Shown: positions 14,176 to 35,728, numbered from the stretch's first letter. The stretch: 64,000 nt of DNA from an uncultured bacterium (GCA_963729625.1 CAVSOU010000008.1:544001-608000), one strand, 5' to 3'. Numbers and translations are program-made. Notes: generated from the letters alone by a model not told the origin.

Positions 14176-14356
14176 GGAAAGGTACCGATATACATGATGC
14201 ACGAGTGCCAACCGGCAGTTCGGCTGGTGGCATTCGACAGCATCCGGTGGGTTCAGCCACCGCTTGAAGCGAGCCTCGGCCCACGGCGTGTTCCTTACCC
14301 GTGAGCAGAGGCGCAGGCAACCTCAACTGAAAGGCTCAGGAGAAAGGGAAGTAATC

Positions 14357-15707: not shown

Positions 15708-18700
15708 TCACTGTGGATTGTCGTCGAGCGTCGAAGCTTCCAGGACCGTAAAAGCTAACGGAGCAAGGATCATCGCCTCTACCGTGCTCAAAGTCTTGAG
15801 CCCGCTGGACAGGGCCTTGGCGGTACTCACCACATCCTCGGCCGCCGAAACGCCGGCAATGGTGAGACCAAGGTCTGCCAGCTTGTTGCCCAGCACAAGA
15901 CTTGCGATGCCTATGGTGAAGTTGCTGTACGCATCGTTCCGGTAGTTCCCGTGCCTTGGTAACCCAGCCGTCCATTCGAGCGCAAGTGATTGGAAAACGA
16001 GGATCACTGAGACGGCCGGTAAGTTCAGACCGGTGGCCAGCAGCGTATCTCCCGCAGCGCTGGCTGTTATTCCTTTCGTGACTCCTGCGAGGTCGATCAG
16101 GCCGGTCAACAGCCCCGTAGAGACCTGGGAGCACAGGAGGTCTTCAAGACCTTGGGCCGAAGTGTTAGTAAACTTTGCCTTGCAGGCCGTCAGCTTGGTC
16201 AGGCTCTGCACCGCCCCCGGAACGTCCACCGTGCCATAGATAACGTCCACATCCTTGCTAACCGTATCGGTCTCGGCCCCGGCAGACTGTATTTTGGTAA
16301 TCGTGGAGCCTATGCTTAGCCCCTTCCCCAGCGCTGTCAGCGCTCCTCCAAGCCAGGTCGACGCGGTTGCGATTCGATCCACTACTTGCGCAACACTGAG
16401 GTCGGCCAGAGTGAAGTCCAAACCGCTGGGATCCACGAGACTTACCGGGTTATCCCGCGCATACAGATAGCGGTGCAAGGTTAATGGATCCTTGAGCGTG
16501 GGGTCCATTGGATCCTCGCTCAGGAAACGACCCTGCGTTGGGTCCATATAGCGCGCACGCAGATAGTACAGTCCCACTCCCGCGTCGAACTGCTGCCCGC
16601 CATAGAGAAAGGGGTTGGGCACCGTGCCGGTCGAGGCTAGCAGGTTGCCGAAAGCATCGTAACGGTAGCTGTTCTGCACCGTGCCCGCGCTGCCTGCCAG
16701 CAGCCGCGTATTCTGGTTGCCATCGTAGAGGTAGTAGGATAGTGCACCTGCGCCCTGGTCCATGCTGATGCGCTCGTTGCCGTAGACGTAGTCGACGGTC
16801 GGCCCGCCGCTCTGCGTGGTTTCCACTACCTGCGGCAGGCCGTCCAGCCCATTGGGGTCCACAAGGTAGGTGGTGATCGTTCCGCCCGTCGTGCTGGTGG
16901 TGCGATTGCCGTCGCCATCGTATGTGTAGCTGGTCGTGCTGCTACCGCTGCTCACGCTGAGCAGCTGGTTCTGGCTGTCGTAGCTGTAGCTGGTCGACAC
17001 GCTCCCGTTGGCACTGCTGAGCAGATTGCCGTCTGCATCGTAAGTTTCGGTGGTGGTGCCGCCTGGTCCGGTTTGGGATGTCATCTCGCCCCTGCTGTTG
17101 TAACGCGAGGTGGTGGTGCCAGTGTCGTCGACTCGCGTCAGACGATTGCCTGCCAGATCGTACGTGTAGGCGGTATTCGCCAGCGTCGTGCCACCGCGCG
17201 ACTGCTGCTCGTGGGTCAGCCGCCCATCGGCATCGTAGCTGTACGTGTAGGTAGCTAACGCGCCGGTTTGGTCGGTCTCTTGCACGCTGGTGCGCTGGCC
17301 CGCGGCATCGATGGTGTAGAGGTCCTGCCAGATCTGGACATTGCCCGGCCCGGTGGTAGTCAGGCTGACCAGCCTGTTCAGCTCGTCGTAGCTGTAGACG
17401 GTCGTCACCCCATTCGGCAGGGTGCGCTGGGCGAGATTGCCGCGGCTGTCATAGCCATAAGCGGTTGTGTGGTGCGCGGGGTCGACGACCTGGATCAGCC
17501 TGCCGGCGGCATCGTACTGGTAGCTCGTGGTGCCGGCTAGAGTGGTGAGGCTCGTGCGGCGACCGGCGCCGTCATACGTGTACTGCAGGGTGCTGCCGCC
17601 GGGCTCGGTGATCGTGGTAATGCGGCCCATCGTGTCGATGGCGTAGCTGGTGGTCTGGATGCTGCCGCCCTGCTGGTTGCCCATCGTCTTGCGCTGCCCG
17701 CCGGAGTAGTAGGTGTAGGTGACGGTGTGGTCCGGATAGGCGATCGTGCTCACCCGGTTCATGGTGTCGTAGCTATAGGTCGTTACCTGGCCGCGCGCGT
17801 TGGTGGTGGTGGCCAGATTGCCCGCCGCGTCGTAGGTGTAGCTCTTGGCCGCGCCATCGGGATACGTGGTGCCGGTCAGGTTATTGTTCAGGTCGTAGGA
17901 ATACTTCGTGACGTTGCCGACGTCGTCATTCTGGTAATTGAGGTTGCCGTTGGCATCGTAGCCATAGATTGCACCCTGATATAGTGGGTTCGTATTCGTG
18001 ATCGGGTCCCGGACCCGGGACAGGTTGCCGCTTGGGTCGTAGGCGTAGCTGGTGAGGCGACCAAGAGGATCCGTCACGCTGGCCAGCTGATTGACATTGG
18101 AATAGGTTTCGGCGGTGGTCACGGTCGTGGGCACGCCGCCGATCGTGACGGCCGTGCTGGTCCCGGTACGGTGATGGCCGGCATCGTAAGTGTAGGTGGT
18201 GACGTGGCCTGCCGGATCGGTCACCGTGGTGCGGTCGCCGGTCACCGGGTCATAGCCGTAGGAGATGCTGTTGCCTAGCGGGTCCGTTACCTTGGTCAGC
18301 CGGTTCGCGCTGTCGTAGCTGTACGTCGTGCTGTCCCCTGCGCCATCGGTGCTGCTGATCTTGCGGCCTGCTGCATCGTAGCCGACGCTCGTCTTGCTGC
18401 CGTCCGGGTAGTCGGTTTCAACCAGCCGGTTGTCGGCGTCATAGATGTACTGTGTGGTCCGGCCGTTCTGATCGATGCTGGCGACGAGATTCCCATTGGC
18501 GTCGTAGGCCTCGCCGGCGGTCGATCCGTCCGGGTAGACGGTCTGCACCAACTGCCCGAGCGCATCGTAGGAATAGCTGCTGGTGTTGCCGCGGGGGTCA
18601 GTAGTTGTCAGCAGCCGGCCCGCCGCGTCATACGTATTCGTGGTAACGCCGCCCTGCGGGTCGGTGGTCGTCAGCATGTTACCTGCCGCATCGTACGTGT

Positions 18701-21700
18701 AGGATGTGACGGCTGTCTTGCCTCCACCAACCAGCGTTGTGCTGGCGGTAACGCGACCCAGTGGATCGCGGGTGTAGGTCGTGCCTGCGTTATTTGGCCC
18801 GCTGTAGGTGTTGACGCCGGTTGCCACGTAGTTGAGAAACTGCGATGAGCCGTTAGGGTACGTCACGCCGCTTGGCACGGAATTACCCACGTAGGAGAAG
18901 TTCGTCGTGTTACCCATCGCGTCTTGCAGCGTAGCCGGGCTGCCGAAGCTGGTATACGTCAGCGTGCTCTGTGTCTTGCCGTTGAAGCTCTGGCTCAGCA
19001 GATGGTGCTGCGCGTCGTACTGATAGCTGGTGGTGTTGCCCAGCGGATCGGCGTCCTGCGTCAGGTCGCCGTTCGTGTTGTAGGCCATGCTCGTCGTATG
19101 ACCGAGCGGGTCGGTCGCCGTGAGCGGCTTGTGCGTGGTCGGGTCGTAGGTATAGCTGGTCGTGTTCCCCAGTGGATCGGTGGACTGGGTGACATCGCCG
19201 AAGTCGTCGAAGATGTTGGTAGTGTGGTTTCCGCGCGCATCGGTGATCACCTGCTGGTGCGTGTTCAGGTTCACGTTGAATGTGGTCGTCTTGCCGTTGA
19301 TGTCGGTGATACTCGTGAGCTGACCCTGAGCGTTGTAGAGTGCGGTGGCCGGGCTCCTGCCCGTTGGGTCGGTCTCGCCGAGTAGGTCGTGGTTGCTGTC
19401 GTAGTGGTAGGTGGTCACGCCGCCGTTCTCGTCGGTCACCGTGGCCAGGTCACCATTGGAATCGTAGCCATACAGGATCGTCTTGCCCGCCGGATCGGTG
19501 ATCTTGGTGATGCGGCCCTGGCTGTCGCGGCTGAACTGCACGGCAGGGCCGCGCGTGCTTGTCACGCCGCTGGATGCGTAGGTGAGCTTGTCGTTGCCGC
19601 CCGGCGTATCCACTTCGGTCAGGCCATCGGCCACGTTGGCGGTGATCTTGAACACGGTGCCGTCGGTGGTGGTCACTGCCAGCTTGGCTGGCGCATAGGG
19701 AGAGAAATTGTTGAAGAGGTCGAACCAGCACTGAGGAGCCGAAGTATCGACACCGGAAGCCAGCCCCGTGCTGGCGCCGTTGATGTCGGCCAGCGTCGCG
19801 CCTGTCGTCGGGTCGGGACTCCAGGCCGGCGCGAAGAGCTCGAAGCCGTCGATGTTCTGGCCCGTGTCGCCGGGATTGAAGTTGAAAGTCATGGGCTGAT
19901 TGGAGATCGGAAGCTGCACAGTGATGTTGCCCAGGCATGTGTCTTCGGTGGCGCTACCCGAGGCCGTTGCCTCCGTCCAGTTCACCCCGAAGTCGCCCTG
20001 GGTGCGCAGGAAGTTATCGAAGGAGCGATTGACCACGATGGGGATGCCGGTCACCGAGACCGAGAGATCGGGCACCGTGAACTGCAGGTTGCCGACCTTG
20101 AGCCGGCCCAGCACGCTGATAGTCGGGCCAGTGAAGGTGACGGTCTTGCCGTCGATGGCGCTGACCTGAAGTCGCAGCGTGTACTGGCCATCACGGAGGC
20201 TCGTGGTATCGAGTGTGCCAAGCGTGCCGTTGCTCACCGTGCTCGTGCCCGTGACGAAGGTGGTGAAGACGCTGCTGCCCAGGGATGCATAGGCGAGGGT
20301 AAAGCCCGCAAGCGTACCGCCGCTTACCCCGGCCGAGCCGATGATCGGCAGTTTGCCGCTGACCTGCTGTGCACTTGTCGGCGAGGTGATGGAAGCGGCG
20401 AGGTGCTCGTTGGGGTTCAAGGTCGCGCTGGGCGTAGCAGTGAGAGTGGGCGCAGCGGTGGCCGTTGGCGTGCTGGTTGGGGTACGGGTCCCGGTGGGAC
20501 TACTGGTCGGCGTGGATGTGTTTGCAGCGGTGCCGCTCGCGGTAGGCGTAGCGCTGGGGCTCAACGTGCCGGTAGGGGTATCGGAGGGCGTGAGCGTGCT
20601 GGTCGGCGTCCCAGTTGGCGTGACGCTCGGCGTATTTGTGCCGGTGCTGGTGGGTGTGGACGTGAGCGTGATAGTCGGGATCGGCGTGCTCGTCGGCACG
20701 AAGCTGGGCGCCACGTCGGGGCCGCTGAAGGCAATGGAGCTTGCGGTGAAGAACGACCCGATACTCGTGGAGATGAAGACCGCGCCGGTTTGGCCGGGTG
20801 CCGGCAGCGGCGCCCCAGTCGTCCCATCAAAGCGGTCGACCTTGGTCGAGGCAAATGTGTCGACGTACAGGTTCCCATCGGGCCCGAATGCCAGGCTTTC
20901 CGCCTGAACGACGCTGCTCGTATCGACAAAGATGGCGCCGCTCTTGCCCGGAGCAGGCAGCGGATCGCCGGTCGTGCCGCTGTAGCGCAGCACCGCAGAG
21001 AGGTCAAAATCGCTCACGTAGAGATTGCCGTCCAATCCTACGGCGATCCCGCCCGTGGCCAGCAATCCACCGCTGCCGCGCGGCACGAACACGGCTCCGC
21101 TTTGCCCGGCCGCCGGCAGCGGCGCACCGGTCGTGCCATCGTAACGACGAATCACGTTGTCGCCGAAATCGGTGATGTAGAGATTGTCATCGCGCCCAAA
21201 GACGAGATCGTAGGGGCTGGCAAGGCCACCGCTGCCGGCCGGAACGAACGTGGCGCCGCTCTGGCCGGGCGCGGGCAGCGGCACGCCGGTGCTACCCTTG
21301 AAGCGGTATACGGCGCCCCCCGACGGATCGAGGAGGAAGAGGTTGCCGTCCGGGCCGAACACGATGTGCCCCGGATTCACGCTCAGGGCGCTGCTCCCGG
21401 CCGCCACGAAGGTCGAGCCGTACTGGCCGGGCGCGGGCAGCGGGCTCAGCGTGGCGCCGTCGAAGCGGAGCACCGGATCGCCCGAGCCGCCGGCGTTGCT
21501 TAGGTAGAGGTTGCCGTCCGGTCCCACGATGGCGTCGAGCGGGATGCCGAGGTCCACGGCGCCGGTCGAGAGCAGCGTGTCGATGGGATTGCCGGCAACC
21601 CCGTCGTAACGCCGCACGCTCCCGTGTGAGAGGGTATCGGCATTCACTTCGATAAGTGCGTCCCATGGCACGGTCACCGGGTTCGAGGTGACGGCACCGC

Positions 21701-24254
21701 CGCCGATCGTGGCCCCGGCCTGTACGGTATCCGTGCCGCCTATGCCGCGGTTTACGTAGCTGAAGGTCGCCACGCCGGCGCTATTTGTCGTGGCGCTCAG
21801 CTGTTGGGCGTTAGGCCCGGTGATGGTGAGCGTGACCGGCGTGTTGGGCACAAGGCTACCGGTAGAATCGGCGGCGGTCACGATGAACTTCTGCTGGCTG
21901 CCGCGGTGCAGACCCACGAAGAGCGGGCTGATGCTGAGCGTGCCGAAGAGCTGCGTCACCCATTGCACGGTACCGGTGTTGGAGGTGATGGTCGGAATGG
22001 CTCCCGCTTGCTGCACGCTCGCTACCACCGTATCCAGGCCGGTCAGGGTGCTAGTGTAGCTGAAAGTCGCGTTGCCCAGGTCGTCGGTGATGGCCTGCCC
22101 CATCACGCCGGCGTTCGGCCCGCTGATCGCGTTGAAGTTCACGGTTACTCCAACCTGCGGCGAGGCGCCGACCACGTCGGCCACATTCGCCGTGAAGGAC
22201 TCAGGCTTCTGTACCTGCTGGCTGGCGCTCAACGGCTGGAGCGTCACCGTGGTGCCCTGCGCGTTCACGCCCGTGGTGCCCATGGGGTGCCACGCGAACA
22301 CGCAATCGGTATTGCCGCCGCCATCGTCGACGATGTGTCCGGTGTCGAACAGACTGGTTTTGCTGCCGTCGCCCAGGCTGACTGTGACGACGGGCGGATA
22401 GTAGAACGGCGGCAGTGCGCTGGTACAGCTGGGGTTGGGCAAGCTCGGCACGTCGTCGCTGGTATCGAAGTCGCCGCCGTTGACGGAAGCGAGGATCACC
22501 GTCTTCCCCGCGGGAATCGTCAACGGGAGCTGCGACGGGATATTCCCGGTCGGATGCAGCCAGGGATCGAGGACCGTCAAGCCGTACGTCGGGTTGGGGA
22601 ATGCGACGGAGACGTCGTTCAGCACGGCAGTATTCGGCGTGTGGTTGTCAATGCGAATGGCTCCGGTGTCGCAATCCACGCCGCTGGTGCAGTTGCCCAC
22701 GAAGATCACGTCCGGCGCACCGGCCCAGGGTCGCGGGAAGTTCAGACCATCTGGGGAACCGTCAGCATACGCTACGGAGACGACCAGTCCCCCGGGTAAG
22801 ACATACGGCGGGGTGGGAGTCGCGTCGGCGGTGGCGGTGTCCGTGGCGGTGTCCGTGGCGGTGCTGGTGTCCGTGTCCGTGGCGGCGGCGGTGCTGGTCG
22901 CGGTTGCCGTGTCCGTGCCGGTTTGGCTCGGCGTTGGCGTATCTGTGACGGCCGTGGTACTGGTTGCCGCCGGCGTCTCGGTGTCTGTGCCGGTGCTCGT
23001 TGCTGTCGAGGTATCCGTAGTGACACTGGTGGTGGTTGAGGCTGGGGTGCTGGTCGTGGTCGGCGTAGCCGTGCCGGTGTCCGTTGGAGATGTGGTAGCG
23101 GTGTCGCTGCCGGTCTGGGTTGGCGTTGGCGTGGTGGTGAGAGCGGAAGTCGTGGTAGCGGTCTCGCTGGCCGTCTGGCTTGGCTCCGGCGTATTAGTAT
23201 CCGTGCCGGTGTGCGCAGGCGTCGTGGTAGCGGTTTCGCTGCCAGTCTGGCTCGGCTCCGGTGTATCGGTGTCTGTGCTGGTGGCGGCGATGCGCGTGGG
23301 AGTCGCCGTTGCAGTGTCCGTACCCGTCGGGCTCGACGTTGGCGTGTTGTTAGGGGCTCCGGTGCTGGTCGCCGTTGGCGTAAGCGTTTGCGTCGGCGCG
23401 TGCGTGACTGTGTTCGTCGGGGTCAGCGATGGCCTGGTGGTTGGCGGTAGCGAAGGTGTGACTGTGCTGGTTGGCGCCGGGGCAGAGGTACCAGTCGGAG
23501 TACTGGTCCATGTATTGGTACGAGAAGGTGTGGCTGTGCCGGTTGACGTCGCATAGGACGTAGCGGTCGGCGTGATGGTGGGGATCGGCGGGAGTGTCGG
23601 CGAGCTCGTGGGGGCCTGGGCACAGACAGGTCCGCCGACAGTATAGAGGATCAGGGCATCCCCATCGCCATCGGCATGGTCATCCCAGTCGCCATTGCTG
23701 TCAGTCTTCACCGTTATGTCGGTCCCAACTGTGGTCGCAGCAAACCGCGACGTGAACGTGACGGTGACCGTCATCGGCAGCCATGTATCGCGCACGTTTC
23801 CTATCCTGATAAGCGTCGGATAGACGGTCGTCGTCAGGTTGACATCGCCGGTTCCTCTTGCCTTGACGTGGGCAATCTGGCTGGCAGGCCAGCAGCCTGA
23901 CAGCAGGACAAAGGCGATTTGCTCTTGCGCTGTGGGTCGCGAGCCGTCGACGCGCCAGGTGAACGTATCCGAAGTCCCGGGCGTAGTAGGCGCTAGCAGC
24001 CTAGCCGTATAGCCCCGGCCAGCAGATCCGGCGTCGTCAATGGCGGCAATAGGCTGATTGGGGGTTCCGGCGGTCGAGCTATCCTCCTCGGTGGCCGTAG
24101 GGGTTGGGCTCTGCCGCGCGTTGACCTGGGCGTGCTGCGCCGCTGCAGCCGGTATGGCAGGCCAGGTCGGAGCTGTGGCGAGAAGCGTGATGAGCACGAG
24201 TGCGGCGCGCAGATAGCTCGCGCGTGCGAAGACCTGTTTCCCCTGACCTCCCAT
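15708..24254 (-). CDS. giant secreted RHS/YD-repeat protein (signal peptide, Thr/Pro linkers, Big-1-like Ig domains, NHL-like propeller, YD shell, C-terminal payload)
   Basis: Many YD repeats; YYLRARYMDPTQGRFLSEDP and YLYARDNPVSLVDPSG core motifs; purine-rich RBS before ATG 24254. Confidence 0.93.
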   Translation of the reverse strand: MGGQGKQVFARASYLRAALVLITLLATAPTWPAIPAAAAQHAQVNARQSPTPTATEEDSSTAGTPNQPIAAIDDAGSAGRGYTARLLAPTTPGTSDTFTWRVDGSRPTAQEQIAFVLLSGCWPASQIAHVKARGTGDVNLTTTVYPTLIRIGNVRDTWLPMTVTVTFTSRFAATTVGTDITVKTDSNGDWDDHADGDGDALILYTVGGPVCAQAPTSSPTLPPIPTITPTATSYATSTGTATPSRTNTWTSTPTGTSAPAPTSTVTPSLPPTTRPSLTPTNTVTHAPTQTLTPTATSTGAPNNTPTSSPTGTDTATATPTRIAATSTDTDTPEPSQTGSETATTTPAHTGTDTNTPEPSQTASETATTTSALTTTPTPTQTGSDTATTSPTDTGTATPTTTSTPASTTTSVTTDTSTATSTGTDTETPAATSTTAVTDTPTPSQTGTDTATATSTAAATDTDTSTATDTATDTATADATPTPPYVLPGGLVVSVAYADGSPDGLNFPRPWAGAPDVIFVGNCTSGVDCDTGAIRIDNHTPNTAVLNDVSVAFPNPTYGLTVLDPWLHPTGNIPSQLPLTIPAGKTVILASVNGGDFDTSDDVPSLPNPSCTSALPPFYYPPVVTVSLGDGSKTSLFDTGHIVDDGGGNTDCVFAWHPMGTTGVNAQGTTVTLQPLSASQQVQKPESFTANVADVVGASPQVGVTVNFNAISGPNAGVMGQAITDDLGNATFSYTSTLTGLDTVVASVQQAGAIPTITSNTGTVQWVTQLFGTLSISPLFVGLHRGSQQKFIVTAADSTGSLVPNTPVTLTITGPNAQQLSATTNSAGVATFSYVNRGIGGTDTVQAGATIGGGAVTSNPVTVPWDALIEVNADTLSHGSVRRYDGVAGNPIDTLLSTGAVDLGIPLDAIVGPDGNLYLSNAGGSGDPVLRFDGATLSPLPAPGQYGSTFVAAGSSALSVNPGHIVFGPDGNLFLLDPSGGAVYRFKGSTGVPLPAPGQSGATFVPAGSGGLASPYDLVFGRDDNLYITDFGDNVIRRYDGTTGAPLPAAGQSGAVFVPRGSGGLLATGGIAVGLDGNLYVSDFDLSAVLRYSGTTGDPLPAPGKSGAIFVDTSSVVQAESLAFGPDGNLYVDTFASTKVDRFDGTTGAPLPAPGQTGAVFISTSIGSFFTASSIAFSGPDVAPSFVPTSTPIPTITLTSTPTSTGTNTPSVTPTGTPTSTLTPSDTPTGTLSPSATPTASGTAANTSTPTSSPTGTRTPTSTPTATAAPTLTATPSATLNPNEHLAASITSPTSAQQVSGKLPIIGSAGVSGGTLAGFTLAYASLGSSVFTTFVTGTSTVSNGTLGTLDTTSLRDGQYTLRLQVSAIDGKTVTFTGPTISVLGRLKVGNLQFTVPDLSVSVTGIPIVVNRSFDNFLRTQGDFGVNWTEATASGSATEDTCLGNITVQLPISNQPMTFNFNPGDTGQNIDGFELFAPAWSPDPTTGATLADINGASTGLASGVDTSAPQCWFDLFNNFSPYAPAKLAVTTTDGTVFKITANVADGLTEVDTPGGNDKLTYASSGVTSTRGPAVQFSRDSQGRITKITDPAGKTILYGYDSNGDLATVTDENGGVTTYHYDSNHDLLGETDPTGRSPATALYNAQGQLTSITDINGKTTTFNVNLNTHQQVITDARGNHTTNIFDDFGDVTQSTDPLGNTTSYTYDPTTHKPLTATDPLGHTTSMAYNTNGDLTQDADPLGNTTSYQYDAQHHLLSQSFNGKTQSTLTYTSFGSPATLQDAMGNTTNFSYVGNSVPSGVTYPNGSSQFLNYVATGVNTYSGPNNAGTTYTRDPLGRVTASTTLVGGGKTAVTSYTYDAAGNMLTTTDPQGGVTTNTYDAAGRLLTTTDPRGNTSSYSYDALGQLVQTVYPDGSTAGEAYDANGNLVASIDQNGRTTQYIYDADNRLVETDYPDGSKTSVGYDAAGRKISSTDGAGDSTTYSYDSANRLTKVTDPLGNSISYGYDPVTGDRTTVTDPAGHVTTYTYDAGHHRTGTSTAVTIGGVPTTVTTAETYSNVNQLASVTDPLGRLTSYAYDPSGNLSRVRDPITNTNPLYQGAIYGYDANGNLNYQNDDVGNVTKYSYDLNNNLTGTTYPDGAAKSYTYDAAGNLATTTNARGQVTTYSYDTMNRVSTIAYPDHTVTYTYYSGGQRKTMGNQQGGSIQTTSYAIDTMGRITTITEPGGSTLQYTYDGAGRRTSLTTLAGTTSYQYDAAGRLIQVVDPAHHTTAYGYDSRGNLAQRTLPNGVTTVYSYDELNRLVSLTTTGPGNVQIWQDLYTIDAAGQRTSVQETDQTGALATYTYSYDADGRLTHEQQSRGGTTLANTAYTYDLAGNRLTRVDDTGTTTSRYNSRGEMTSQTGPGGTTTETYDADGNLLSSANGSVSTSYSYDSQNQLLSVSSGSSTTSYTYDGDGNRTTSTTGGTITTYLVDPNGLDGLPQVVETTQSGGPTVDYVYGNERISMDQGAGALSYYLYDGNQNTRLLAGSAGTVQNSYRYDAFGNLLASTGTVPNPFLYGGQQFDAGVGLYYLRARYMDPTQGRFLSEDPMDPTLKDPLTLHRYLYARDNPVSLVDPSGLDFTLADLSVAQVVDRIATASTWLGGALTALGKGLSIGSTITKIQSAGAETDTVSKDVDVIYGTVDVPGAVQSLTKLTACKAKFTNTSAQGLEDLLCSQVSTGLLTGLIDLAGVTKGITASAAGDTLLATGLNLPAVSVILVFQSLALEWTAGLPRHGNYRNDAYSNFTIGIASLVLGNKLADLGLTIAGVSAAEDVVSTAKALSSGLKTLSTVEAMILAPLAFTVLEASTLDDNPQ
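20720..21650 (-). repeat. NHL-like beta-propeller repeats within the RHS protein
   Basis: Five copies of GPDGNLY...(F/Y)xGxxxxPLPA(P/A)G(Q/K)xGxxF(V/I) plus one degenerate blade. Confidence 0.75.
22810..23610 (-). repeat. Thr/Pro-rich low-complexity linker with SQT(G/A)(S/T)(E/D)TAT repeats
   Basis: Roughly 270 aa dominated by T/P/S/A with internal repeats such as TPEPSQTGSETATT. Confidence 0.75.
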
Positions 24255-24366
24255 GTCGCTCGTTCCCCCTTTGCCGCTCCCAGCTGCTGGCCGTGTGCCT
24301 GCCGTTGCTGGCAAAGCCGGTCCGGTCCGGTCACCTGTGAAGCCTGGGCCCCGCACCATGAGGACA

Positions 24367-24456
24367 ACGCTACTCCGGCCATGTTCGCCGACTGTTGCAG
24401 TTTTGCGTTCGCCCGCCTCTGGCGCGCTTGTGTCCGGGCCTGCTTCCTTGTGTAGC
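24367..24456 (-). promoter_or_regulatory. conserved promoter element, copy A (upstream of the RHS gene)
   Basis: GCTACACAAG-N11-GGACACAAG-N4-CCAGAGG-N2-GGC-N10-CTGCAAC-N20-GTAGCGT. Confidence 0.7.
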
Positions 24457-24578
24457 CGCGGCCCGATCTCGCACGGTCTCCCCCGTATGGATGTGCTCGC
24501 TCAGCCCAAGATCACGCTGATGCGGCTGTAAGCCCGTGGTCTCGAGGATGTTGTTGGGTCCTGTGGCGCCGGCAGTAA

Positions 24579-27500
24579 CTACGTCGATTCGGAGGCGTGT
24601 AGCGCCAGCACGTCGGTGATGATGCCGTTCAGAGACATCGTTTGGCCTTCCGCCCACCTGACGGCGAACATGTCATCAGCGCCGAGCAACTGTCGCACCC
24701 AAGCGACGTCGGCCGCGAATACCTTTTGCGAACTCGGCGGGAGCGGATGGCCGACGGCAGTGTACTCCGCCTCGACGGCACCAAGCAGATTCGCCGCCAG
24801 CGCCGGATTCCCTTCGCCTGCGATCATTAGTGCCCAGTTTTGTAGCACATCGGCCAGCGCCACCCGTTCGCCAAGGGTCCGGTATCCGTGCATGCTGAGG
24901 CGGAAGTGGGCGATCGCCTCCCGATAGTGTTCCTGCTCGCAGGCTATGCGACCCAACTCGTTGTGGACACCTGCACTCCCCGAGATATCGGCCTGTTCAT
25001 CGAACTGTGGTAGCACCGAATCGAGCAACGTCGCGGCACGCGGCAGGTCACCGGCCAGGCGATAGCAGACTGCCTGGTTGAAGAGCGTATAGCGGATCGG
25101 ACAGAACGCGTGGCGGTCATCCAGCGTCCGCCGCTGCCCCAGGCATTCCTCGTTGAGCGTGATGGCACGGGTGTAGTCGCCCTCCTCCTGAGCGACGAGG
25201 GCCAGGTTGTGCAGCGCTCTCACGATATTCGGCGTATCACTCTCGCGCCGGAATATCGCCAACGACTCTTCATAGAGTGCTGCTGCCTGCACCCGGTCTC
25301 CCTGAAACCTGGCGACGTTGCCCAGTCCGTTGAGGGCGTTAGCCACTTCGCCGCTATTGTGCGTGGCACGGCCAAGGGCGAGGCACTCTTCATGCACCGC
25401 ACGGGCCAGTTCGTGATCACCCTGGTTGATCGCGAAGTGGCCTAATCCTCGTAAGGCTCGCAGCCGCGCGACCGGAGCGCCGCCTTCGCGAGAAAGCACG
25501 GCCGAGAGCCAGGTGCGTCCCTCGATCCAATGCCCTCGCGCCGCCCAGAACCACCAGAGTGCTCCTGCCAGGCGGATACCCGCATGCACATCCTCGTCCT
25601 GCCGCACACACCACTCGAGCGCAGCCCGCAGATTGTCGTGCTCAATTTCCATGCGCTCGACCCAGGCGGGCTGAGGGGGACCGTGCGAAGCCGGCCACGC
25701 ACGTTCCGCAAACGCCAGGCACCAGCGCAGATGCCGATCCCGCGCCTGGGCCTCCTCTCCGTGCTCTCGAAGATGCTGGACTGCATAGTGGCGCACTGTC
25801 TCGAGCAGCCGGTAGCGGCACGACGTCTCTGGGTCGTCCTCGATCTGCACCAGGGACTTGCTCGCCAGCCTGGCAAGCAGGTCAGATACGCCGGCTTCCT
25901 CCAACGGGCTGTCCGAACAGACGGCTTCCACGGCGTCGAGCGTCCAACCACCTGCAAATACTGATAGTGTGCGGAACAGTGCCTGTTCGTCGTCGCTGAG
26001 CAGGTCGTAGCTCCAATCCATCACCTCACGGAGCGTCTGATGGCGAGGCAAGGCCGCCCGATTCCCGACCGTGAGCAATCGGAACCGATCGTGCAGCCGG
26101 GCGGCAAGGTCGCCGGGAGAGAGCTGTCCGAGACGAGCAGCCGCCAATTCTATGGCCAGGGGAATTCCGTCGAGTTGGGTGCAGATCTCCACGATGGCCC
26201 GCCAATTGTCGAGCGTCAAGGCAAAGTCAGGCCGCACCAGCCGCGCGCGCTCGACGAGGAGACGCGTCGCGGCGTGCCGGCCCACCTCCTGCAGCGAGAG
26301 CTCGCCTCGCCGGGCCCGTGGAGGGACGGCGAGAGACGGCAACCGCCACACCGTCTCGCCCAGCACACCTAGCGGTTCCCGGCTGGTGGCCAAGATCTGC
26401 GTGCTAGGGCACTCCCGTAAGATAGAGGCCACGAACGCTACGCTAGCGGCTATCACATGCTCGCAGTTGTCGAGGATCAGCAGCATCCGGCCCGACCGCA
26501 GAATGGAGATCAGCGTCGGCAGCGAAGACCGGTCCGTACCTGGATGCAAGCCGAGTGCGCCGGCCGTCTGGCAGGCGATAGGCTCAAGATCAACCTCCCT
26601 TTCAGGCGCCAGCACGGCCAGCTCCACCAACCACAGGCCATCGGGATACACACTCCGCAATTCATGGCCAAGCTCGATCGCCAGGCGCGTCTTTCCGCAG
26701 CCGCCCGCACCGGTCACGGTGAGCAGGCGGCACGCTTGGCCGGCCGGAGATGCCGCGCCACCGGAGAGTAGCCGGGCCAGCGTCGCCAGCTCTTGCTCGC
26801 GTCCGAGAAAGCTGGTCAGCGGCGTGGGCAAGTTGGAATGCTGCGCGGAGGCAGCGTGGCGGCTTGCCACCGCCGCCTGATAGTGCTCCTCGGTTTCGCT
26901 GTCCGGCGCCATGTCGAGATCGCGCCGCAGTGCGTCGGCCACCTGCTTGTAGGTACGGGCAGCCTCGGGAGCCCGCCCGGCCGCGACTTGTACGCGCATC
27001 AGGGATCGCGCCGCCGGCTCATTGCACGCATCGATGGCGAGGACTGCCCGCAGGCAGCGCGCCGCTTCACCCAGCACCCCATCCCGTTCGCGCAGATCGG
27101 CCAGGCGAAGCAAGAGCGCGAGGTACTGCTGGCGTAGCTCCTCCCTGCGCATGACCGCCCACTCATCGTACACGTCGTCCGGCAAATACTCTCCACCATA
27201 GAGCGCCAGTGCGGCCCGGCACGCAACAGCATCCCCGCCAGCCAAAGCGATGGCAGCAGCGCGCTCGAAGGCACGTGCATCCAGCCAGTCCTCAGGCGGC
27301 GTGTTCTCAGGTGCGGGGGCGAGCACCAGCAGGCCGCCCTCAAGGCGCACATACCCGAGCTCTCCCGTGCGCTGTCCCAATACCTTGCGGAGACGGTGAA
27401 CGGTCGTTCGCAGGTATGTGGCGGCCATGGCAGGCTCCTCCTCGGGCCTGAGCAACTCGGCCAGTTGTTCGCGGTGCCGCCGGTGCCGAGGCGCGCTCAG

Positions 27501-27866
27501 CAGGCATTTGAACAGCATTGTTGCCTGGCGGTGACGCCAGGTCTCCGCCGGCAAAGGTGTGCTACCACGCCAAACAGCAAAACCACCGAGCGTTCGCACC
27601 CGAAGCGGCGCGTACGTCTGGGCCGCCACCATCGCTTCAGGCAACTCGAGCGGCTCCGGCGTCGCCGCCGCCTCGGGTGGCAGGTGCTTGCCGATATAAC
27701 GCGAGCGCCGTCGCCCACCCTCGCGCCAGTAGGCATACCAGTAGGGACCGTGACCTGGAGAACCCAACACGCAGGTTGGGCACGCGAGCTTGTTGCAGCG
27801 TCGAAACTGCTGACTATACGTGACGCGTGTCGCCGCCGCCAACTGACCGGTAGCCATGCCGCGCAC
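24579..27866 (-). CDS. AfsR/SARP-like regulator: Cys/His Zn-ribbon (DUF6788-like) + BTAD + NB-ARC/STAND ATPase + TPR
   Basis: RRCNKLACPTC...GHGPYWYAYW; LRVRTLGGF, WLDARAFE, ALALYGGEYLPD (BTAD); TGAGGCGKTRLA, LILDNCEH, LDGIPLAIELAA; TPR tail. Confidence 0.88.
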   Translation of the reverse strand: MRGMATGQLAAATRVTYSQQFRRCNKLACPTCVLGSPGHGPYWYAYWREGGRRRSRYIGKHLPPEAAATPEPLELPEAMVAAQTYAPLRVRTLGGFAVWRGSTPLPAETWRHRQATMLFKCLLSAPRHRRHREQLAELLRPEEEPAMAATYLRTTVHRLRKVLGQRTGELGYVRLEGGLLVLAPAPENTPPEDWLDARAFERAAAIALAGGDAVACRAALALYGGEYLPDDVYDEWAVMRREELRQQYLALLLRLADLRERDGVLGEAARCLRAVLAIDACNEPAARSLMRVQVAAGRAPEAARTYKQVADALRRDLDMAPDSETEEHYQAAVASRHAASAQHSNLPTPLTSFLGREQELATLARLLSGGAASPAGQACRLLTVTGAGGCGKTRLAIELGHELRSVYPDGLWLVELAVLAPEREVDLEPIACQTAGALGLHPGTDRSSLPTLISILRSGRMLLILDNCEHVIAASVAFVASILRECPSTQILATSREPLGVLGETVWRLPSLAVPPRARRGELSLQEVGRHAATRLLVERARLVRPDFALTLDNWRAIVEICTQLDGIPLAIELAAARLGQLSPGDLAARLHDRFRLLTVGNRAALPRHQTLREVMDWSYDLLSDDEQALFRTLSVFAGGWTLDAVEAVCSDSPLEEAGVSDLLARLASKSLVQIEDDPETSCRYRLLETVRHYAVQHLREHGEEAQARDRHLRWCLAFAERAWPASHGPPQPAWVERMEIEHDNLRAALEWCVRQDEDVHAGIRLAGALWWFWAARGHWIEGRTWLSAVLSREGGAPVARLRALRGLGHFAINQGDHELARAVHEECLALGRATHNSGEVANALNGLGNVARFQGDRVQAAALYEESLAIFRRESDTPNIVRALHNLALVAQEEGDYTRAITLNEECLGQRRTLDDRHAFCPIRYTLFNQAVCYRLAGDLPRAATLLDSVLPQFDEQADISGSAGVHNELGRIACEQEHYREAIAHFRLSMHGYRTLGERVALADVLQNWALMIAGEGNPALAANLLGAVEAEYTAVGHPLPPSSQKVFAADVAWVRQLLGADDMFAVRWAEGQTMSLNGIITDVLALHASEST

Positions 27867-27925
27867 CGTTCTCAGGGAACTCCGCCGTCCCTCTACCTAA
27901 TCTCTAAGGTGCCTGAGGTGCTCCT

Positions 27926-28014
27926 GCTACACAAGCGCGTTGGGTGGACACAAGATGACCAGAGGATGGCAGATCGTGGGCTGTAACGGATACGCACGAC
28001 CGCTTGTGTAAGCT
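27926..28014 (+). promoter_or_regulatory. conserved promoter element, copy B (upstream of the small ORF)
   Basis: GCTACACAAG-N10-GGACACAAG-N4-CCAGAGG-N2-GGC-N10-CTGTAAC-N20-GTAAGCT. Confidence 0.7.
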
Positions 28015-28081
28015 GTGCACATAAGCTACGCCAGCGGCTTCAGAGGCATACGGCAAACGGCCCGAGGGAAGATCGAAATCG

Positions 28082-28309
28082 ATGACGAGGTACGATGCCT
28101 ACGTTCTGCGGTTCTGGCAAAGCACGGGAAAGGATGGGCCACAGTGGAAGGGTAGGATAGAACACCTTGGGCGCGGCGAAAGCGTGCAGTTTGACAACCT
28201 GGAGGCCTTACTGCATCACATACGCACAATCGCCGGCGTAGAGCGTGGTCTGGGCAGCATGGACCGCGGTCCAGGACACGGAGAAGCCGGAAAGAGCATG
28301 GCGCCCTAG
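28082..28309 (+). CDS. small hypothetical protein (YVLRFW...WKGRIEH...GE...FDNLEALL)
   Basis: 75 aa with globular-looking composition, GAGGGA RBS-like sequence upstream, divergent from the STAND regulator. Confidence 0.7.
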   Translation: MTRYDAYVLRFWQSTGKDGPQWKGRIEHLGRGESVQFDNLEALLHHIRTIAGVERGLGSMDRGPGHGEAGKSMAP

Positions 28310-28506
28310 CCGTGCAGCGTCCGGGCGACATTGTCGGCAGTGTGATTCGGGAGATCGTCCTCGTGAAGACCAATCCTAGCTACGGGCCTGATGCCTGGCA
28401 TCCGGGCACGGGCACTGTCATCGGGACGGTCTGCACCAGCTAGATTCTGGCTGCGCGCCGGCCCCATCAGCACAAGTCACTCCCAATGTCTTCGCAGCAG
28501 CGACCA

Positions 28507-31610: not shown

Positions 31611-31952
31611 GTCGGTGCACCCTAGAGAAAGAATCTCGCCCGGTGTGAGCGGTGGGCGTTCATGTTCGTTTAAGAGTCGCTAGACTATCATGCATGTGTA
31701 GAACGTTGCGGAACGACACGATCGGATTCCCTCAGTTCGATCGGCCGTTCTTGCCGGCAGCGCGCGATCCGAGGCAATTCGTGCTTCGCCCAGTCGCCGG
31801 CCGCGACAAACAGGCAAGCGTGACCGATACAAGGGGATCTCGCGCTACAGGCCTGGCACAAGCGAACCCTGCCGCGGTGCTATCGCGTAACCAGCGTTCG
31901 GAGGCATCGCGCATCCCGATCGATCTCGGGGTGAGCGATGCAGGTGGGAAGG

Positions 31953-34900
31953 ATGGCAATGAAAAGTAAAGTCGCGCGCGTCATACATCTCGGGCTGCTC
32001 GCCGGCCTCGTACTCGGCTTAATCGTGCCGGCGGCAAACGGCACATCCCAGGCATCAGCCGCCTCGGCCGGCGCCGGTGTCTCCGACCGTTCGACGGTTG
32101 TCGACAGCGCCACCGGGCGGATGTATATCGTCTATGGCAATGTGCTGCACCTGGTGTCCACCCCTCAGGTGTTGACAGTGCTGGGCATCGCGGCATCGTC
32201 CGCCGTGAAGCTCGACAGCACGCAGTTGGCGCAGCTGCAGGAAGGCGCACCGCTGACGCTGCGGGAGACCAACGGACAGACCGATCCGCTGTCGCCGGTG
32301 GCGTCAGGCACGGCGTCGCTGACGCTCAGCACGGCGAGCGTGCCTGCCGGCGAGCCGTTCTCGGTGCAAGGGGCGGGATTCACGCCCTCAGAGCCGGTTC
32401 AGCTCGTCTTCGACTTTGGGCAGGTAAGCAGCACGCTGCACGCGGATGCCACGGGCGTCTTCAGCGGGACGTTCGTCATGCCTGTCTCGGTAACGCCGGC
32501 AATCATCCGCGTCTTTGCCTTTGGCGGGCTGAGCAAGATCATGGAAATCGAGCCGATTGCCGTACTCGAGAAAGAAGGTCCGCCGCACCTCACGGCAAGC
32601 GCTGCCAAGCTCTACCCCGGGGACGGCGTCGGCGTGGCGGGAACCGGTTTTCAGCCGTACGAAACCGTCTCCATCTACTTCACCGCGGGCGGCACTTCCG
32701 TGGAGACGGCCGCGGACGTGCGTGGCGCATTCACGGCGCAAACTGTGACCGCGCCGGCGACGATCTCGCCGGGCAGTCACAGCATCACGGCGAGCGGGAA
32801 GACCAGCCATCACTCCACGAAGGTCTATGTCACGATTGTCGCGCGGCCGATCGTGAAAGCAAGCCTGGTCGTAAGCCCGGCCGAGACGCGTGCCGGGCAG
32901 CCGATTGTGCTGAGCGGCGCTGGTTTCCTGGCCAATGAACTGGTGCACGTGCGGATTGGCGCGGCGCAGGCCTTCGACCTCCGTGCCGACGGCAACGGCG
33001 CGTTTCAGAATGTGCGGGTTTCGCTGAGCCAAAGTCTGGCGGCGGGAAAGGCCACCGTCAGCGCGACAGGCACGTCATCGCAGCGCAGCAGCATCGCCAC
33101 CCTGTCCATCGTGGCGCCGCTGCAGACGAACGCGATTCCGGCTGACGGCTCGCTCATCCGCGATCAGTCGACCGGCAGAGTCTACTTCATCTGGGGAAGC
33201 GTGCGCCACTGGATCGACAGCCCGGCTGTGCTTCAGACTCTCGGCTTCAGCAGCGCGAGTCCGGTGGATCTGCCTTCCGCGGCAGTGACTGCGATCAAGA
33301 ACGGCGCCACGTTAGGGCTGACGCTTGTCGACGGTCTCGTGTTCCCGCTTGCGCCCGTCAGCAACAGCGGTGCATCGCTCCGGCTATCGGAGCCATCCGA
33401 CACGCCCGGGAAAGTGTTTACCATTACCGGCTCGCGTTTCGCGCACTTCGAGGCCGTGCAGATCGTGTTCGCGGGAGCGGCGCAGGTCGTCGCTACCGAC
33501 GGCAGCGGCAACCTCACAGCGTCGCTCGTCGTCCCGGGCTCCGCGCAGCCAAACAGCGTGTTGCAGGTGATCGTGTTGGGCCAGGCCAGTCACGTATTCG
33601 CTATGGAACCGTTCAACGTGATCAACGCGCCGGCCACGGCGAGCCTCATCTCGCAGACGCCGAGCGTGCTCCAGGGCGCGCACGCAATCGTGAGCGGCAG
33701 TGGCTTTTTGCCAAACGAACAGGTGAACCTGTTCCTGGGCCAGACCGCATCGGCTGCGCCGGCGCAGGCGGATCAAAACGGTATCTTCTCGTCCGGCGCG
33801 CTGGTAGTGCCGCCATCACTGAGCGTGGGTTCGCACAGCCTCATGGCCTACGGCCTGTCCAGCAAGCGATTTGCTCAGGGCACCATTACTATCGTGAAAC
33901 CGTCGCTGAGCCCTCCTACGCTCTCTACGGATCGTACCAGCGTCAACCCGGGCAGCCTCGTGCAGGTGCGCGGCTACAACTTCGCGGCGCACGAGACCGT
34001 CCACGTGAGCTTCGGCTCGACACTGGTCCTCTCGTTGCAGAGCGGATCCAGCGGCCAGTTCGGTCCCGTGGGCATCACTATTCCCACCACCACGCCCGCC
34101 GGCAGCTACACACTCAGCGGCACTGGCGGCACATCTAATTCGACCGCGACGGTGACGCTGACGATCGTGGCCTACAACCCATCTATCAGCATCTCTCCGG
34201 TGTATGCGATTCCCGGCACGAGAATCGCCGTGGGCGGGAACGGCTACGCCGCGGGCGAAATCGTGACGCTGGCCCTGAACGGGCAGGCTCTGGCGACAAG
34301 CCCCGGCCAGATCAAGACCGGCCCAGCCGGCGCCTTCTCCGCGAGCTTCATCGTGCCGCCCACGGCGCTTGCCGGGGCGAACACCGTGGCGGCGTCGGGC
34401 GCCACGAGCCGAGCCTCGGCCACGATGGGTCTTGCCGTGAGTCTGCCGGTGCAGTCCACGTGGTATTTCGCGGGCGGGAACACGGCACCCGGATTCGACA
34501 CGGAGATCGCGCTGGTCAACCCAAATGGCGCGCCTACCAACGTCACCTTCTCGTTCATGTTTACGAGCGGGAGCCCCATGCCGTATTCGATGGTCGTGGG
34601 CGCCGATAGCCGGGCCACGGTCAACGTGGGCTCCATCGTGGGAGCGGGCCGTGCCGTCTTCACCATGCTGACCGCCGATCGCAAGATTGGCGCCTCGGAA
34701 ACGGTCTTCCGAAACGGCCAGGACTTCAGCTCGACGAGCGGCGCCAGCGCACCGTTGCGCACGTGGTATCTCGCAGAGGGCTATACGGGCCTCAGTTTCC
34801 ATGAGTACATCCGCATCTTCAATCCAGGCATCGGCCAGGCGCATGTCGACTTGCGCCTGCTGCCGTTCAATGGCCGTCCCGCCACCTCGCTCATCGAGCT

Positions 34901-35708
34901 GCTAGCGGCCCAGACGGGGACCATCGTCGACGTCAACGCGATCGAGTCTGGTCTCTCGCTGTCGGCGATCGTCAGCAGCGACCAGCCTGTCGTCGTGGAG
35001 CGGCTGATGACCTTCGGGCCTGGCGGCTACGGCGCCACCGAGCAGGTTGGCGCGTCGGCGCCATCCAGCACCTGGCTGTTTGCCGAAGGCTCTACAGTGA
35101 ACAACTTCGAGACGTATTACACGATTCTCAACCCGAGCTCATCGCAGCTCGCCGCGGTCACGGCGACGTTCTTTGACCAGGCCGGCAACGTGTTGGCGAA
35201 CACGACAGTGCTGATCAATCCGCTGCGACGCGGCAACATCAAGGTCAACGATCTGCTGCGCTCGAGCGGTATCGCCACGATCCTCACCTCAAACATCCCG
35301 GTGGTGGCAGAGCGGCCCCTCTACTTCGGATCGCCGAATTCGTCCACCGCTGGGTCGGGGGGCAGTGACGTATTCGGACGCAACGGCGGCGGCGTGAGTT
35401 GGCTTTTCCCCGAGGGGAATACCAGCGCAGGGTACACGGAGTTTCTTCTCCTCCAGAATCCCAGCGCGCGGCCTGCGCCGGTGACCGTCCGCTTCTTCGA
35501 AACCAACGGCCAGACCGTCGACTACGGCGTGACGCTGCCCGGGAAGAGCCGGACCACCGTCGACGTGCTGCGGAATGTTCCCACGCTGCCGCCAGGATTG
35601 CACGGATCGATCGTGCAGTCGACGAACGGCGTGCCGATCATCGCGGAACAGAGCATCTATAGCGACAACTTCACAAAAGGTGATGGCGAAGCTGGAATCT
35701 CACAATAG
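31953..35708 (+). CDS. large secreted/surface protein with Ig-like repeats and four C-terminal W(Y/L)xxEG-type repeats
   Basis: Signal peptide; repeated G.GF...E.V...ADxxGxF modules; WYFAGG, WYLAEG, WLFAEG, WLFPEG units each followed by NP. Confidence 0.8.
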   Translation: MAMKSKVARVIHLGLLAGLVLGLIVPAANGTSQASAASAGAGVSDRSTVVDSATGRMYIVYGNVLHLVSTPQVLTVLGIAASSAVKLDSTQLAQLQEGAPLTLRETNGQTDPLSPVASGTASLTLSTASVPAGEPFSVQGAGFTPSEPVQLVFDFGQVSSTLHADATGVFSGTFVMPVSVTPAIIRVFAFGGLSKIMEIEPIAVLEKEGPPHLTASAAKLYPGDGVGVAGTGFQPYETVSIYFTAGGTSVETAADVRGAFTAQTVTAPATISPGSHSITASGKTSHHSTKVYVTIVARPIVKASLVVSPAETRAGQPIVLSGAGFLANELVHVRIGAAQAFDLRADGNGAFQNVRVSLSQSLAAGKATVSATGTSSQRSSIATLSIVAPLQTNAIPADGSLIRDQSTGRVYFIWGSVRHWIDSPAVLQTLGFSSASPVDLPSAAVTAIKNGATLGLTLVDGLVFPLAPVSNSGASLRLSEPSDTPGKVFTITGSRFAHFEAVQIVFAGAAQVVATDGSGNLTASLVVPGSAQPNSVLQVIVLGQASHVFAMEPFNVINAPATASLISQTPSVLQGAHAIVSGSGFLPNEQVNLFLGQTASAAPAQADQNGIFSSGALVVPPSLSVGSHSLMAYGLSSKRFAQGTITIVKPSLSPPTLSTDRTSVNPGSLVQVRGYNFAAHETVHVSFGSTLVLSLQSGSSGQFGPVGITIPTTTPAGSYTLSGTGGTSNSTATVTLTIVAYNPSISISPVYAIPGTRIAVGGNGYAAGEIVTLALNGQALATSPGQIKTGPAGAFSASFIVPPTALAGANTVAASGATSRASATMGLAVSLPVQSTWYFAGGNTAPGFDTEIALVNPNGAPTNVTFSFMFTSGSPMPYSMVVGADSRATVNVGSIVGAGRAVFTMLTADRKIGASETVFRNGQDFSSTSGASAPLRTWYLAEGYTGLSFHEYIRIFNPGIGQAHVDLRLLPFNGRPATSLIELLAAQTGTIVDVNAIESGLSLSAIVSSDQPVVVERLMTFGPGGYGATEQVGASAPSSTWLFAEGSTVNNFETYYTILNPSSSQLAAVTATFFDQAGNVLANTTVLINPLRRGNIKVNDLLRSSGIATILTSNIPVVAERPLYFGSPNSSTAGSGGSDVFGRNGGGVSWLFPEGNTSAGYTEFLLLQNPSARPAPVTVRFFETNGQTVDYGVTLPGKSRTTVDVLRNVPTLPPGLHGSIVQSTNGVPIIAEQSIYSDNFTKGDGEAGISQ

Positions 35709-35728
35709 ACCTAGCGAAGGGACCACGG

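Follow-up and report, generated by a model that had tools for sequence, protein, structure and literature searches.

The locus and its two promoter-like elements

The stretch of DNA analysed here (the window, 64,000 nucleotides) comprises positions 544001-608000 of contig C8 in the assembly of an uncultured member of the Chloroflexota (G000; 5,411,702 bp in 21 contigs, 87% completeness). The subject of this analysis is a module of three genes and two promoter-like elements. A giant RHS/YD-repeat open reading frame (ORF) of 2883 aa, recognized from Pfam, NCBIfam and its translation, occupies 15708..24359 on the minus strand and lies 120-220 nt downstream of a same-strand gene for a 1095-aa AfsR-like regulator (24579..27866), which is identified by Pfam, NCBIfam, a PDB match and its AlphaFold2 (AF2) fold. 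The plus strand carries a 75-aa ORF (28082..28309) supported by orthologs and a profile search; it is divergent from the regulator and separated from it by a 224-bp spacer. Putative element A (24367..24456, minus strand, read 24456->24367) is placed between the regulator stop codon and the RHS start, 5' of the RHS gene, and putative element B (27926..28014, plus strand) is contained in the spacer between the regulator and the small gene; both are defined by sequence anatomy. No biosynthetic cluster is visible around the locus. Sequence comparisons favor the interpretation, with a probability of about 65%, that the elements are promoters controlled by the AfsR-like SARP-STAND regulator whose gene they flank, and that they belong to its very small regulon.

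The two elements share the pattern GCTACACAAG-N10/11-GGACACAAG-N4-CCAGAGG-N2-GGC-N10-CTGYAAC-N20-G-TAnnnT. On the minus strand, element A consists of the distal repeats R1 (GCTACACAAG, 24456-24447) and R2 (GGACACAAG, 24435-24427), the CCAGAGG block (24422-24416), an 11-bp unit termed DRup at the position of the proximal box (TGCAACAGTCG, 24399-24389), a degenerate DRdown (24388-24378), and the -10-like hexamer TAGCGT (24372-24367). The corresponding parts of element B on the plus strand are R1 (27926-27935), R2 (27946-27954), CCAGAGG (27959-27965), DRup (TGTAACGGATA, 27982-27992), the DRdown position (27993-28003), and the -10-like hexamer TAAGCT (28009-28014). With TAGCGT and TAAGCT taken as -10 hexamers, transcription is predicted to start near 24360 (minus) for element A and near 28021 (plus) for element B, which places the ACACAAG repeats at about -93 to -67. 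A scan of 24200-28400 for the sigma-70 consensus called neither element. Element B may play a role in autoregulation as well, since its R1 is only 69 nt from the regulator ATG.

Rarity and conservation of the elements

The ACACAAG motif occurs eight times in the window against an expectation of 4.4, and five of the eight occurrences are inside the two elements. The longer pattern ACACAAG-N9-13-GGACACAAG has exactly two sites in the whole genome, elements A and B, and a reversed control pattern has none. When one mismatch at most is allowed, the pattern is present in three of 41 related genomes, all of one genus (G000, G001, and G003), and is not found in the same-genus genomes G002 or G004. 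One candidate from the one-mismatch search (L021) lies within a BNR-repeat ORF and was rejected as a probable chance match. Wider scans for the distal repeat pattern returned one related locus out of 20 on genome contigs, which is the G003 contig itself, and one out of 54 on metagenome contigs, with a promoter identical to that of G003; the remaining loci are chance matches, and thus no further target genes were gained.

An alignment of the five copies from the three genomes spans 108 columns, 27 of which are identical in all five copies and 16 more in four of five, every one of them within the blocks. The DNA between the blocks is unrelated. Selection acts on the blocks and their spacing; recent duplication and a dispersed repeat are ruled out because conservation is confined to the blocks, pairwise identity among the copies is 45-55%, and R2 and the yTGnAAC block are set 34 bp apart in all five. 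A first-pass annotation of the sequence had proposed two copies at these positions, directed away from the central gene and kept by selection on blocks and distances. These proposals hold: all blocks were located, both copies face gene starts, and the alignment with its constant spacing points to selection. A dispersed repeat unrelated to the genes, which the annotation had named as a way to be wrong, is contradicted by a pattern found only twice in 5.4 Mb, both times adjoining the regulator.

The mutually inverted arrangement of the copies around a single gene would also be expected of the ends of a mobile regulator cassette or of duplication remnants. Elements A and B are, however, 48% identical, no closer than copies of different genomes and with the identity all within the blocks; each copy faces a gene start, only two copies are present in the genome, and in G001 the regulator is not bracketed by the copies, which are separated by 620 kb. 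An origin of this kind is the least credible of the explanations weighed here. Structured RNAs, too, typically have conserved blocks set apart by spacers that vary in sequence and are fixed in length, and the 5' GCTAC is able to pair with the 3' GTAGC in some copies, as might occur in a leader or small RNA. Such an RNA is nevertheless very improbable, as RNAalifold on the five copies yielded -1.68 kcal/mol with only six weak pairs (on an alignment in which MAFFT had put an 11-nt gap of copy A in the wrong place), the 64-kb window has no Rfam match at the gathering score, the blocks are direct repeats, and the 3' block lies at the expected -10, hence most of the element would be untranscribed.

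The AfsR-like regulator

The regulator comprises, in order, a DUF6788 CCCH knuckle (~13-60), an OmpR-type winged helix-turn-helix (wHTH, ~85-180), a BTAD (196-330), a P-loop NTPase, and a TPR region (~790-1010). This agrees with the zinc-ribbon/BTAD/NB-ARC/TPR architecture read from the sequence in the first pass and is borne out by comparisons with Pfam, NCBIfam, the PDB and AF2 models as well as by the zinc-knuckle residues. The BTAD is matched by Pfam PF03704 at residues 196-330 (E 1e-12, 49.1 bits against a cut-off of 22.1), and the Pfam Trans_reg_C match is weak (18.9 bits against a cut-off of 26.2). An AF2 model of residues 1-336 (pLDDT 81.4) matches the SARP domain of AfsR (8k60_J; E 7e-10, TMt 0.77, 28% identity over 260 columns) and EmbR (2ff4; E 1.3e-07). 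AfsR is also the best solved relative by sequence (8k60_I, E 1.6e-14 in phmmer), with residues 85-470 aligned to AfsR 22-417. The regulator is SARP-like in sequence and in modeled fold, and the wHTH N-terminal to the BTAD is present in the model.

The NTPase is recognized in the translation by its Walker A motif GAGGCGKT and a Walker-B-like LLILDN motif, with the Pfam families AAA_16 and AAA_22 below their cut-offs, and the TPR region by TPR_12 (E 7.9e-19) and other Pfam TPR families. The AfsR equivalog model of NCBIfam, NF053617, gives a partial match (E 8.9e-27, 93.4 bits against a cut-off of 1430); judged by sequence, the regulator has AfsR architecture and is no AfsR ortholog. The N-terminus is DUF6788-like (E 7e-4), and its residues C21, C26, C29, and H36 are invariant across 17 regulator paralogs, which suggests a CCCH zinc knuckle. 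Proteins of the DUF6788-BTAD-ATPase-TPR type are common in metagenomes and carry only generic annotations. Apart from a TPR model, no PADLOC defense model matches the regulator. Orthologous regulators are found in G001 (63% identity) and G003 (65%), and a search with the N-terminal 336 aa in the genus's four other genomes gave between 8 and 19 matches in each.

The regulator likely starts at ATG 27857, with GTG 27866 as the alternative. The only sigma-70-like site in 24200-28400, TTGGCG-18-TATAGT at 27813-27842 (minus strand), is inside the annotated 5' end of the regulator, and for this reason both the start codon and the regulator's own promoter are unsettled.

The small protein and its pairing with SARP regulators

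The 75-aa ORF is preceded by a Shine-Dalgarno-like run, GAGGGAAG, and has orthologs of 63-69% identity in G001 and G003 and four paralogs in its own genome. A profile search recovered 2202 cluster representatives at E<=1e-3, including 118 at E<=1e-10. None of 42 family members reached the cut-off of a Pfam family, no NCBIfam family was matched either, and the source annotations of the members are hypothetical. By sequence criteria, the ORF is genuine and its product belongs to a large family that has no name. The AF2 model (pLDDT 78.8) consists of a beta-beta-beta-alpha core (residues 7-51) and a disordered tail; Foldseek found no match to this fold in the PDB at E<=0.001, the wide VIA-align search returned COMM domains at a best Z of 4.6, within the noise range, and the Atlas contained only unnamed clusters below 0.9. 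A predicted complex of regulator residues 1-336 with small-protein residues 1-60 scored 0.11 against a mark of 0.32, which speaks neither for nor against binding.

The association of regulator, small gene and element, which had been proposed from this sequence alone, is upheld in related genomes: both G001 and G003 retain the orthologous regulator and the divergent small gene with the element between them, and no synteny with either genome is found downstream of the small gene. Among the matches listed for same-genus regulator loci, 8 of 20 have a divergent small gene upstream, and contig ends truncate several of the remaining 12. The host genome itself contains five small genes and five full DUF6788-SARP N-termini, with three of the small genes at most 5 kb from such a regulator. 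Across the phylum, the small gene is present in 20 of 151 genomes, representing 14 of 97 genera, and a wHTH-BTAD gene is located within 1.5 kb of it, divergent or in tandem, in 17 of the 30 loci listed. These gene neighborhoods identify the regulator and the small gene as the conserved core of the module, in a family that often adjoins SARP genes phylum-wide.

A probable proximal SARP box and a distal element

Small genes outside the genus indicate where a SARP domain would bind. An 11-bp tandem repeat (at least 8/11 identical) ends 3-8 nt upstream of a TAnnnT hexamer in 8 of 24 such loci, against an expected count of 0.195 from 200 shuffles, and these repeats are GTAACGG-like. Paralogous modules of like architecture in the host genome (C10:983772, C11:695716, and upstream of C8:295689) and other paralogous promoters carry comparable tandems: CTGAAACGAGC / CTGAAACGACC in L053 (match 10/11, -10 TAGGCT), TGTAACGCCGC / CGCGACGCCGC at C11:695716 (8-9/11, TAGACT), TGCAAGAAGTA / TGCAAGAGGGC in L054 (8/11, TATGAT), and GTGCAAGAAGC / GTGCAAGTCCG upstream of the small gene at C8:295689 (TATGAT), with matches of 7/11 at both C10:983772 and L062. 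The 11-bp tandems of the paralogous promoters sit exactly at the position of the CTGYAAC-N20 block. The yTGnAAC(G) block is probably the position of the upstream repeat of a SARP box, with the ACACAAG repeats as an extra, distal element. The first-pass annotation had instead taken the ACACAAG repeats for the SARP sites, an assignment that these tandems make improbable.

The putative recognition helix of the regulators offers a second line of comparison. A helix of the form LRxxxHRLR accompanies TGnAACG boxes in seven regulator-promoter pairs, and the form LY(T/S)ALHA(L/V)R accompanies GTGCAAG boxes in L054 and in the regulator at C8:308171 paired with the promoter at C8:295689. This suggests that the helix varies together with the proximal box; the covariation is suggestive and not stronger, because the sample is small. 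The small gene at C8:295477-295689 (minus strand) is itself an orphan with a full two-tier promoter, in which GTGCAAG occurs twice with an 11-bp period and is followed by TATGAT. It is situated 12.5 kb from the regulator paralog C8:308171-311215, whose helix, NLYSALHAVR, agrees with the one in the G001 regulator L054, and the G001 small gene beside L054 has the same GTGCAAG box type as the orphan.

At the paralogous modules, distal repeats and a CCAGAG block are found again, with other flanks. The repeats read TTGCACAAG and GCGCACAAG in L053, GCACACAAG and GCGCACACAAG in L051, GTGCACAAAC twice with a period of 20 in the C11 module, and TTGCACAAG and GTACACAAG in the C10 module. A forward pair of CA[CA]AA[GC] motifs is present in 7 of 12 promoters beside DUF6788 regulators, compared with 1 of 13 beside regulators that do not have DUF6788.

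The distal repeats, with their 19-20 bp period, could themselves be the SARP sites, in which case activation would be class-I-like from about -70/-90 and yTGnAAC...TAnnnT would be the core promoter. They are conserved better than any other block (10/10 and 8-9/9 positions across the five copies) and they differ between paralogous modules; R2 and CAGAGG are 11 bp apart and match at 8/11 in copy B, a geometry that would suit a side-by-side dimer. This assignment is nonetheless unlikely, given the clear 11-bp tandem directly 5' of the -10 in paralogous and out-of-genus promoters, which resembles the afs box (PMC10936776). The recognition helix, moreover, tracks the proximal box, and the out-of-genus promoters do not have CACAAG repeats but retain the pairing with SARP genes.

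The promoters might also be driven by another regulator paralog or by an extracytoplasmic function (ECF)-like sigma factor that reads TGnAAC...CGTA. The abundance of paralogs in each same-genus genome and the similar proximal blocks of paralogous promoters are in keeping with such a driver, and TGnAAC and CGTA resemble ECF -35 and -10 motifs. ECF promoters have a spacing of 16-17 nt, which the 19-20 nt seen here exceeds, and the ECF-like core is not enriched across the genome, whichever spacing between 14 and 24 nt is taken. The exact repeat flanks GCTA- and GGA- are confined to sites linked with this group of orthologous regulators, and adjacency to the regulator is conserved in three genomes. 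Control by another driver is for these reasons decidedly improbable, and the regulator encoded between the elements is preferred.

The RHS gene and other candidate outputs

The RHS protein is matched by the Pfam RHS_repeat family in 20 stretches (E 1.2e-133) and by NCBIfam YD_repeat_2x, and contains an Rhs-associated core (TIGR03696, Rhs_assc_core) at residues 2567-2647. The Gly/Ala/Leu-rich C-terminal domain of ~236 aa after the core (window 15708-16442) matches no family; the last 244 aa have no Pfam or PADLOC match and give Atlas leads that are all below 0.9. The gene that follows encodes a convergent HtrA-like protease (Trypsin_2 and PDZ; window 14264-15463, plus strand). No ORF downstream matches a family and no immunity gene is evident there; the same strand has no room for an immunity gene, because the RHS gene ends facing the convergent HtrA-like gene. 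The listed start of the RHS gene, ATG 24359, is 8 nt past the -10-like hexamer of element A. Another ATG, at 24254, is accompanied by a Shine-Dalgarno-like run (GGGGGA), and the stretch that begins with it resembles a signal peptide, which leaves the true start uncertain and makes ATG 24254 the more likely of the two from sequence features.

The RHS gene had been presented as a target belonging to the system as such, and this claim found no support beyond the host genome. The second element copy of G001 is perfect and located 620 kb from the regulator, upstream of a GDSL/SGNH hydrolase gene whose product has no obvious signal peptide.

Paralogous modules are associated with other genes. The C10 module (C10:982700-989700; L063:4686-11631) is split: a short DUF6788-wHTH-BTAD protein of 370 aa is divergent from the promoter at C10:983772, which is followed by the gene for a 1528-aa nSTAND1-WD40 protein whose N-terminal region is TIR-like (residues 115-210 by PADLOC TIR models). 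Next come a small-protein paralog and, after it, a gene for a PrsW protease with a double zinc ribbon. The paralogous promoter in L022 is followed by a PrsW-protease-like gene, a zinc-ribbon gene, and a small-protein gene. PrsW-family protease genes with double zinc ribbons adjoin small-protein paralogs twice, upstream in the same orientation at L022:6510-9902 (G001:C20) and directly downstream at L063:10498-11631. In the C11 module (C11:692269-696051; L064:4228-8115) the regulator paralog consists of two overlapping ORFs, a SARP-NTPase (4228-6423) and a TPR protein (6375-7613), which could reflect a frameshift or an assembly error. The C11 promoter comes after the regulator and is followed by a tandem small-protein paralog and an RCC1-repeat protein.

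The window also contains several genes beyond the module. A 1256-aa protein with DUF5719 as its sole Pfam match is encoded at 31938-35708 (plus strand), 3.6 kb past the small gene and after a glutamate dehydrogenase gene. Overlapping ORFs of 966 and 986 aa on opposite strands, neither with a Pfam match, occupy 35711-38689. A second STAND-type regulator with an XRE-type HTH (HTH_31/HTH_3), AAA_16, and a MalT-like TPR region is encoded at 37933-41181 (plus strand).

Comparison with known systems

The closest counterpart of the locus is the AfsR/afsS system. AfsR binds a 22-bp afs box of afsS that consists of two 11-bp repeats from -40 to -19, overlapping the -35 (PMC10936776), and chromatin immunoprecipitation sequencing located very few direct sites, afsS and wblH (bioRxiv 10.64898/2026.09.02.748808). 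AfsR activates the adjacent afsS; AfsS in turn binds AfsR and enhances its DNA binding, and its function requires its repeated sequences (PMC10832544). The locus shares with this system the domain order of the regulator (SARP, P-loop NOD, TPR), with AfsR as its best solved match, and an adjacent small-protein gene that is apparently the conserved direct target of a very small regulon. The paralogous and out-of-genus boxes are likewise two 11-bp direct repeats, ending ~5-8 nt 5' of the -10, in the manner of the afs box (PMC10936776). The first-pass annotation regarded the locus as a candidate new system. AfsR and afsS, however, already present this arrangement, in which a large regulator of the SARP-NOD-TPR type activates an adjacent small-protein gene and has a tiny direct regulon (PMC10936776, PMC10832544, bioRxiv 10.64898/2026.09.02.748808).

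There are also differences. The host belongs to the Chloroflexota, and the regulator has an additional N-terminal DUF6788 CCCH knuckle. The small protein is predicted to be beta-beta-beta-alpha and no internal repeat is seen in its 75 aa, an apparent distinction from AfsS with its repeated sequences (PMC10832544). The small gene is divergent here and not downstream, an extra distal repeat pair precedes the box by 34 bp, and the second target is an RHS gene and not a regulator gene such as wblH. By every sequence feature tested the locus resembles AfsR/AfsS, and it is a variant of that arrangement, not a categorically new one.

Other families share parts of this organization. Small cluster-situated SARPs (ActII-ORF4 and RedD) and EmbR have the wHTH and BTAD fold in common with the regulator, and they bind direct repeats overlapping the -35 region (PMC10936776). 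Unlike this regulator, SARPs of the ActII-ORF4/RedD type have no NOD-TPR sensor part and control biosynthetic clusters. STAND/NLR-like factors such as MalT and the LAL regulators, together with bacterial NLR conflict systems, likewise combine an NTPase with a repeat sensor that controls an output, and one paralogous promoter in this genome precedes a TIR-nSTAND1-WD40 gene; the output here is a SARP DNA-binding module in place of a LuxR-type HTH or a death effector. The RHS protein has the YD repeats, Rhs-associated core and subsequent variable C-terminal domain of RHS polymorphic toxins, from which it differs in a C-terminal domain that matches no family and in the absence of a visible downstream immunity gene. 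A literature search, with subscription journals and supplements outside its coverage, found no paper in which an RHS gene is preceded by a SARP-STAND promoter of its own, none on DUF6788, and, judged by title or abstract among the papers listed, none on such modules in Chloroflexota.

Proposed mechanism

In the preferred interpretation, the TPR/NTPase part of the regulator would sense a signal, and the SARP domain (wHTH and BTAD) would bind a proximal box overlapping the -35. This box would be formed by the yTGnAACg block and the next 11 bp, with a spacer of ~5 nt before a TAGnnT or TAAGCT -10. The bound SARP domain would then recruit RNA polymerase, as AfsR does on the afs box, and would activate rather than repress transcription. 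The distal repeats GCTACACAAG-N10/11-GGACACAAG and CCAGAGG would act as an additional upstream element that differs between paralogous modules and probably decides which regulator is paired with which promoter. Its reader may be the CCCH knuckle at the N-terminus or, alternatively, additional protomers of the oligomerized regulator. The first output would be the conserved small partner protein, a candidate functional analog of AfsS without homology to it, which may bind the regulator and may, as the first-pass annotation had suggested, serve as a cofactor or in feedback. The second output appears to vary by genome, with an RHS polymorphic-toxin-like protein with a putative signal peptide here and a GDSL hydrolase in a sister genome. 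The regulator-dependent promoters proposed in the first-pass annotation are most likely correct in outline; their novelty was overstated and their SARP site probably misassigned.

A number of observations weigh against this interpretation. The focal copies keep only the upstream half of the box (ctG.aACg), and in the five copies the downstream 11 bp match it at 2-5/11, about chance, so that a SARP box is assigned to the focal promoters by their positional homology with those of the paralogs. The spacing of 21 nt from TGnAAC to the -10 leaves no normal sigma-70 spacer. A TG[ACT]AAC-N20-GTAGnnT core is not enriched genome-wide (four matches against four in the control), which fits a tiny regulon yet yields no independent support. 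With 8-19 paralog matches per genome, another paralog could be the true binder. The correlation of DUF6788 with distal repeats is confounded by phylogeny, and the link between the two is put forward as a hypothesis, because 11 of the 12 promoters come from one genus. Lastly, the link to an RHS gene is seen in one genome only: the N-terminal 751 aa of the RHS protein are unmatched in G001-G004, assemblies that are 83-95% complete, a level at which absence of the gene is not demonstrated.

Biological significance

AfsR is the textbook bacterial NLR-like transcription factor and, to our knowledge, has been studied only in Streptomyces. The locus suggests that AfsR logic operates in another phylum, where a sensor-regulator would control an adjacent small-protein target and one or two further promoters. 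It is distinguished by a small partner unrelated to AfsS, an extra zinc-knuckle domain in the regulator, an extra upstream operator in the promoter, and a toxin-like RHS output in place of antibiotic regulation.

A broader proposal is possible, and at this point more doubtful than credible: Chloroflexota may harbor an expanded family of NLR-like (STAND) regulators, each wired through a bipartite operator to its own beta-beta-beta-alpha partner and to a conflict or effector gene, or two of them. These would be an RHS toxin in the present case and a TIR-STAND-WD40 protein or a hydrolase in others. The wHTH would read a generic SARP box at the -35 and the DUF6788 knuckle a paralog-specific distal pair, thereby insulating the paralogs. 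The small protein would have arisen by convergence as a counterpart of AfsS without homology to it, and would exert feedback on the regulator. If this is true, DUF6788 would be a second, previously unrecognized DNA-reading module that keeps paralogs from cross-talk.

The locus provides a compact case for how many paralogous SARP-STAND regulators could remain insulated from one another. It also offers an entry to the role of an unnamed family of small proteins, and to how a signal-sensing NTPase may come to control polymorphic-toxin genes.

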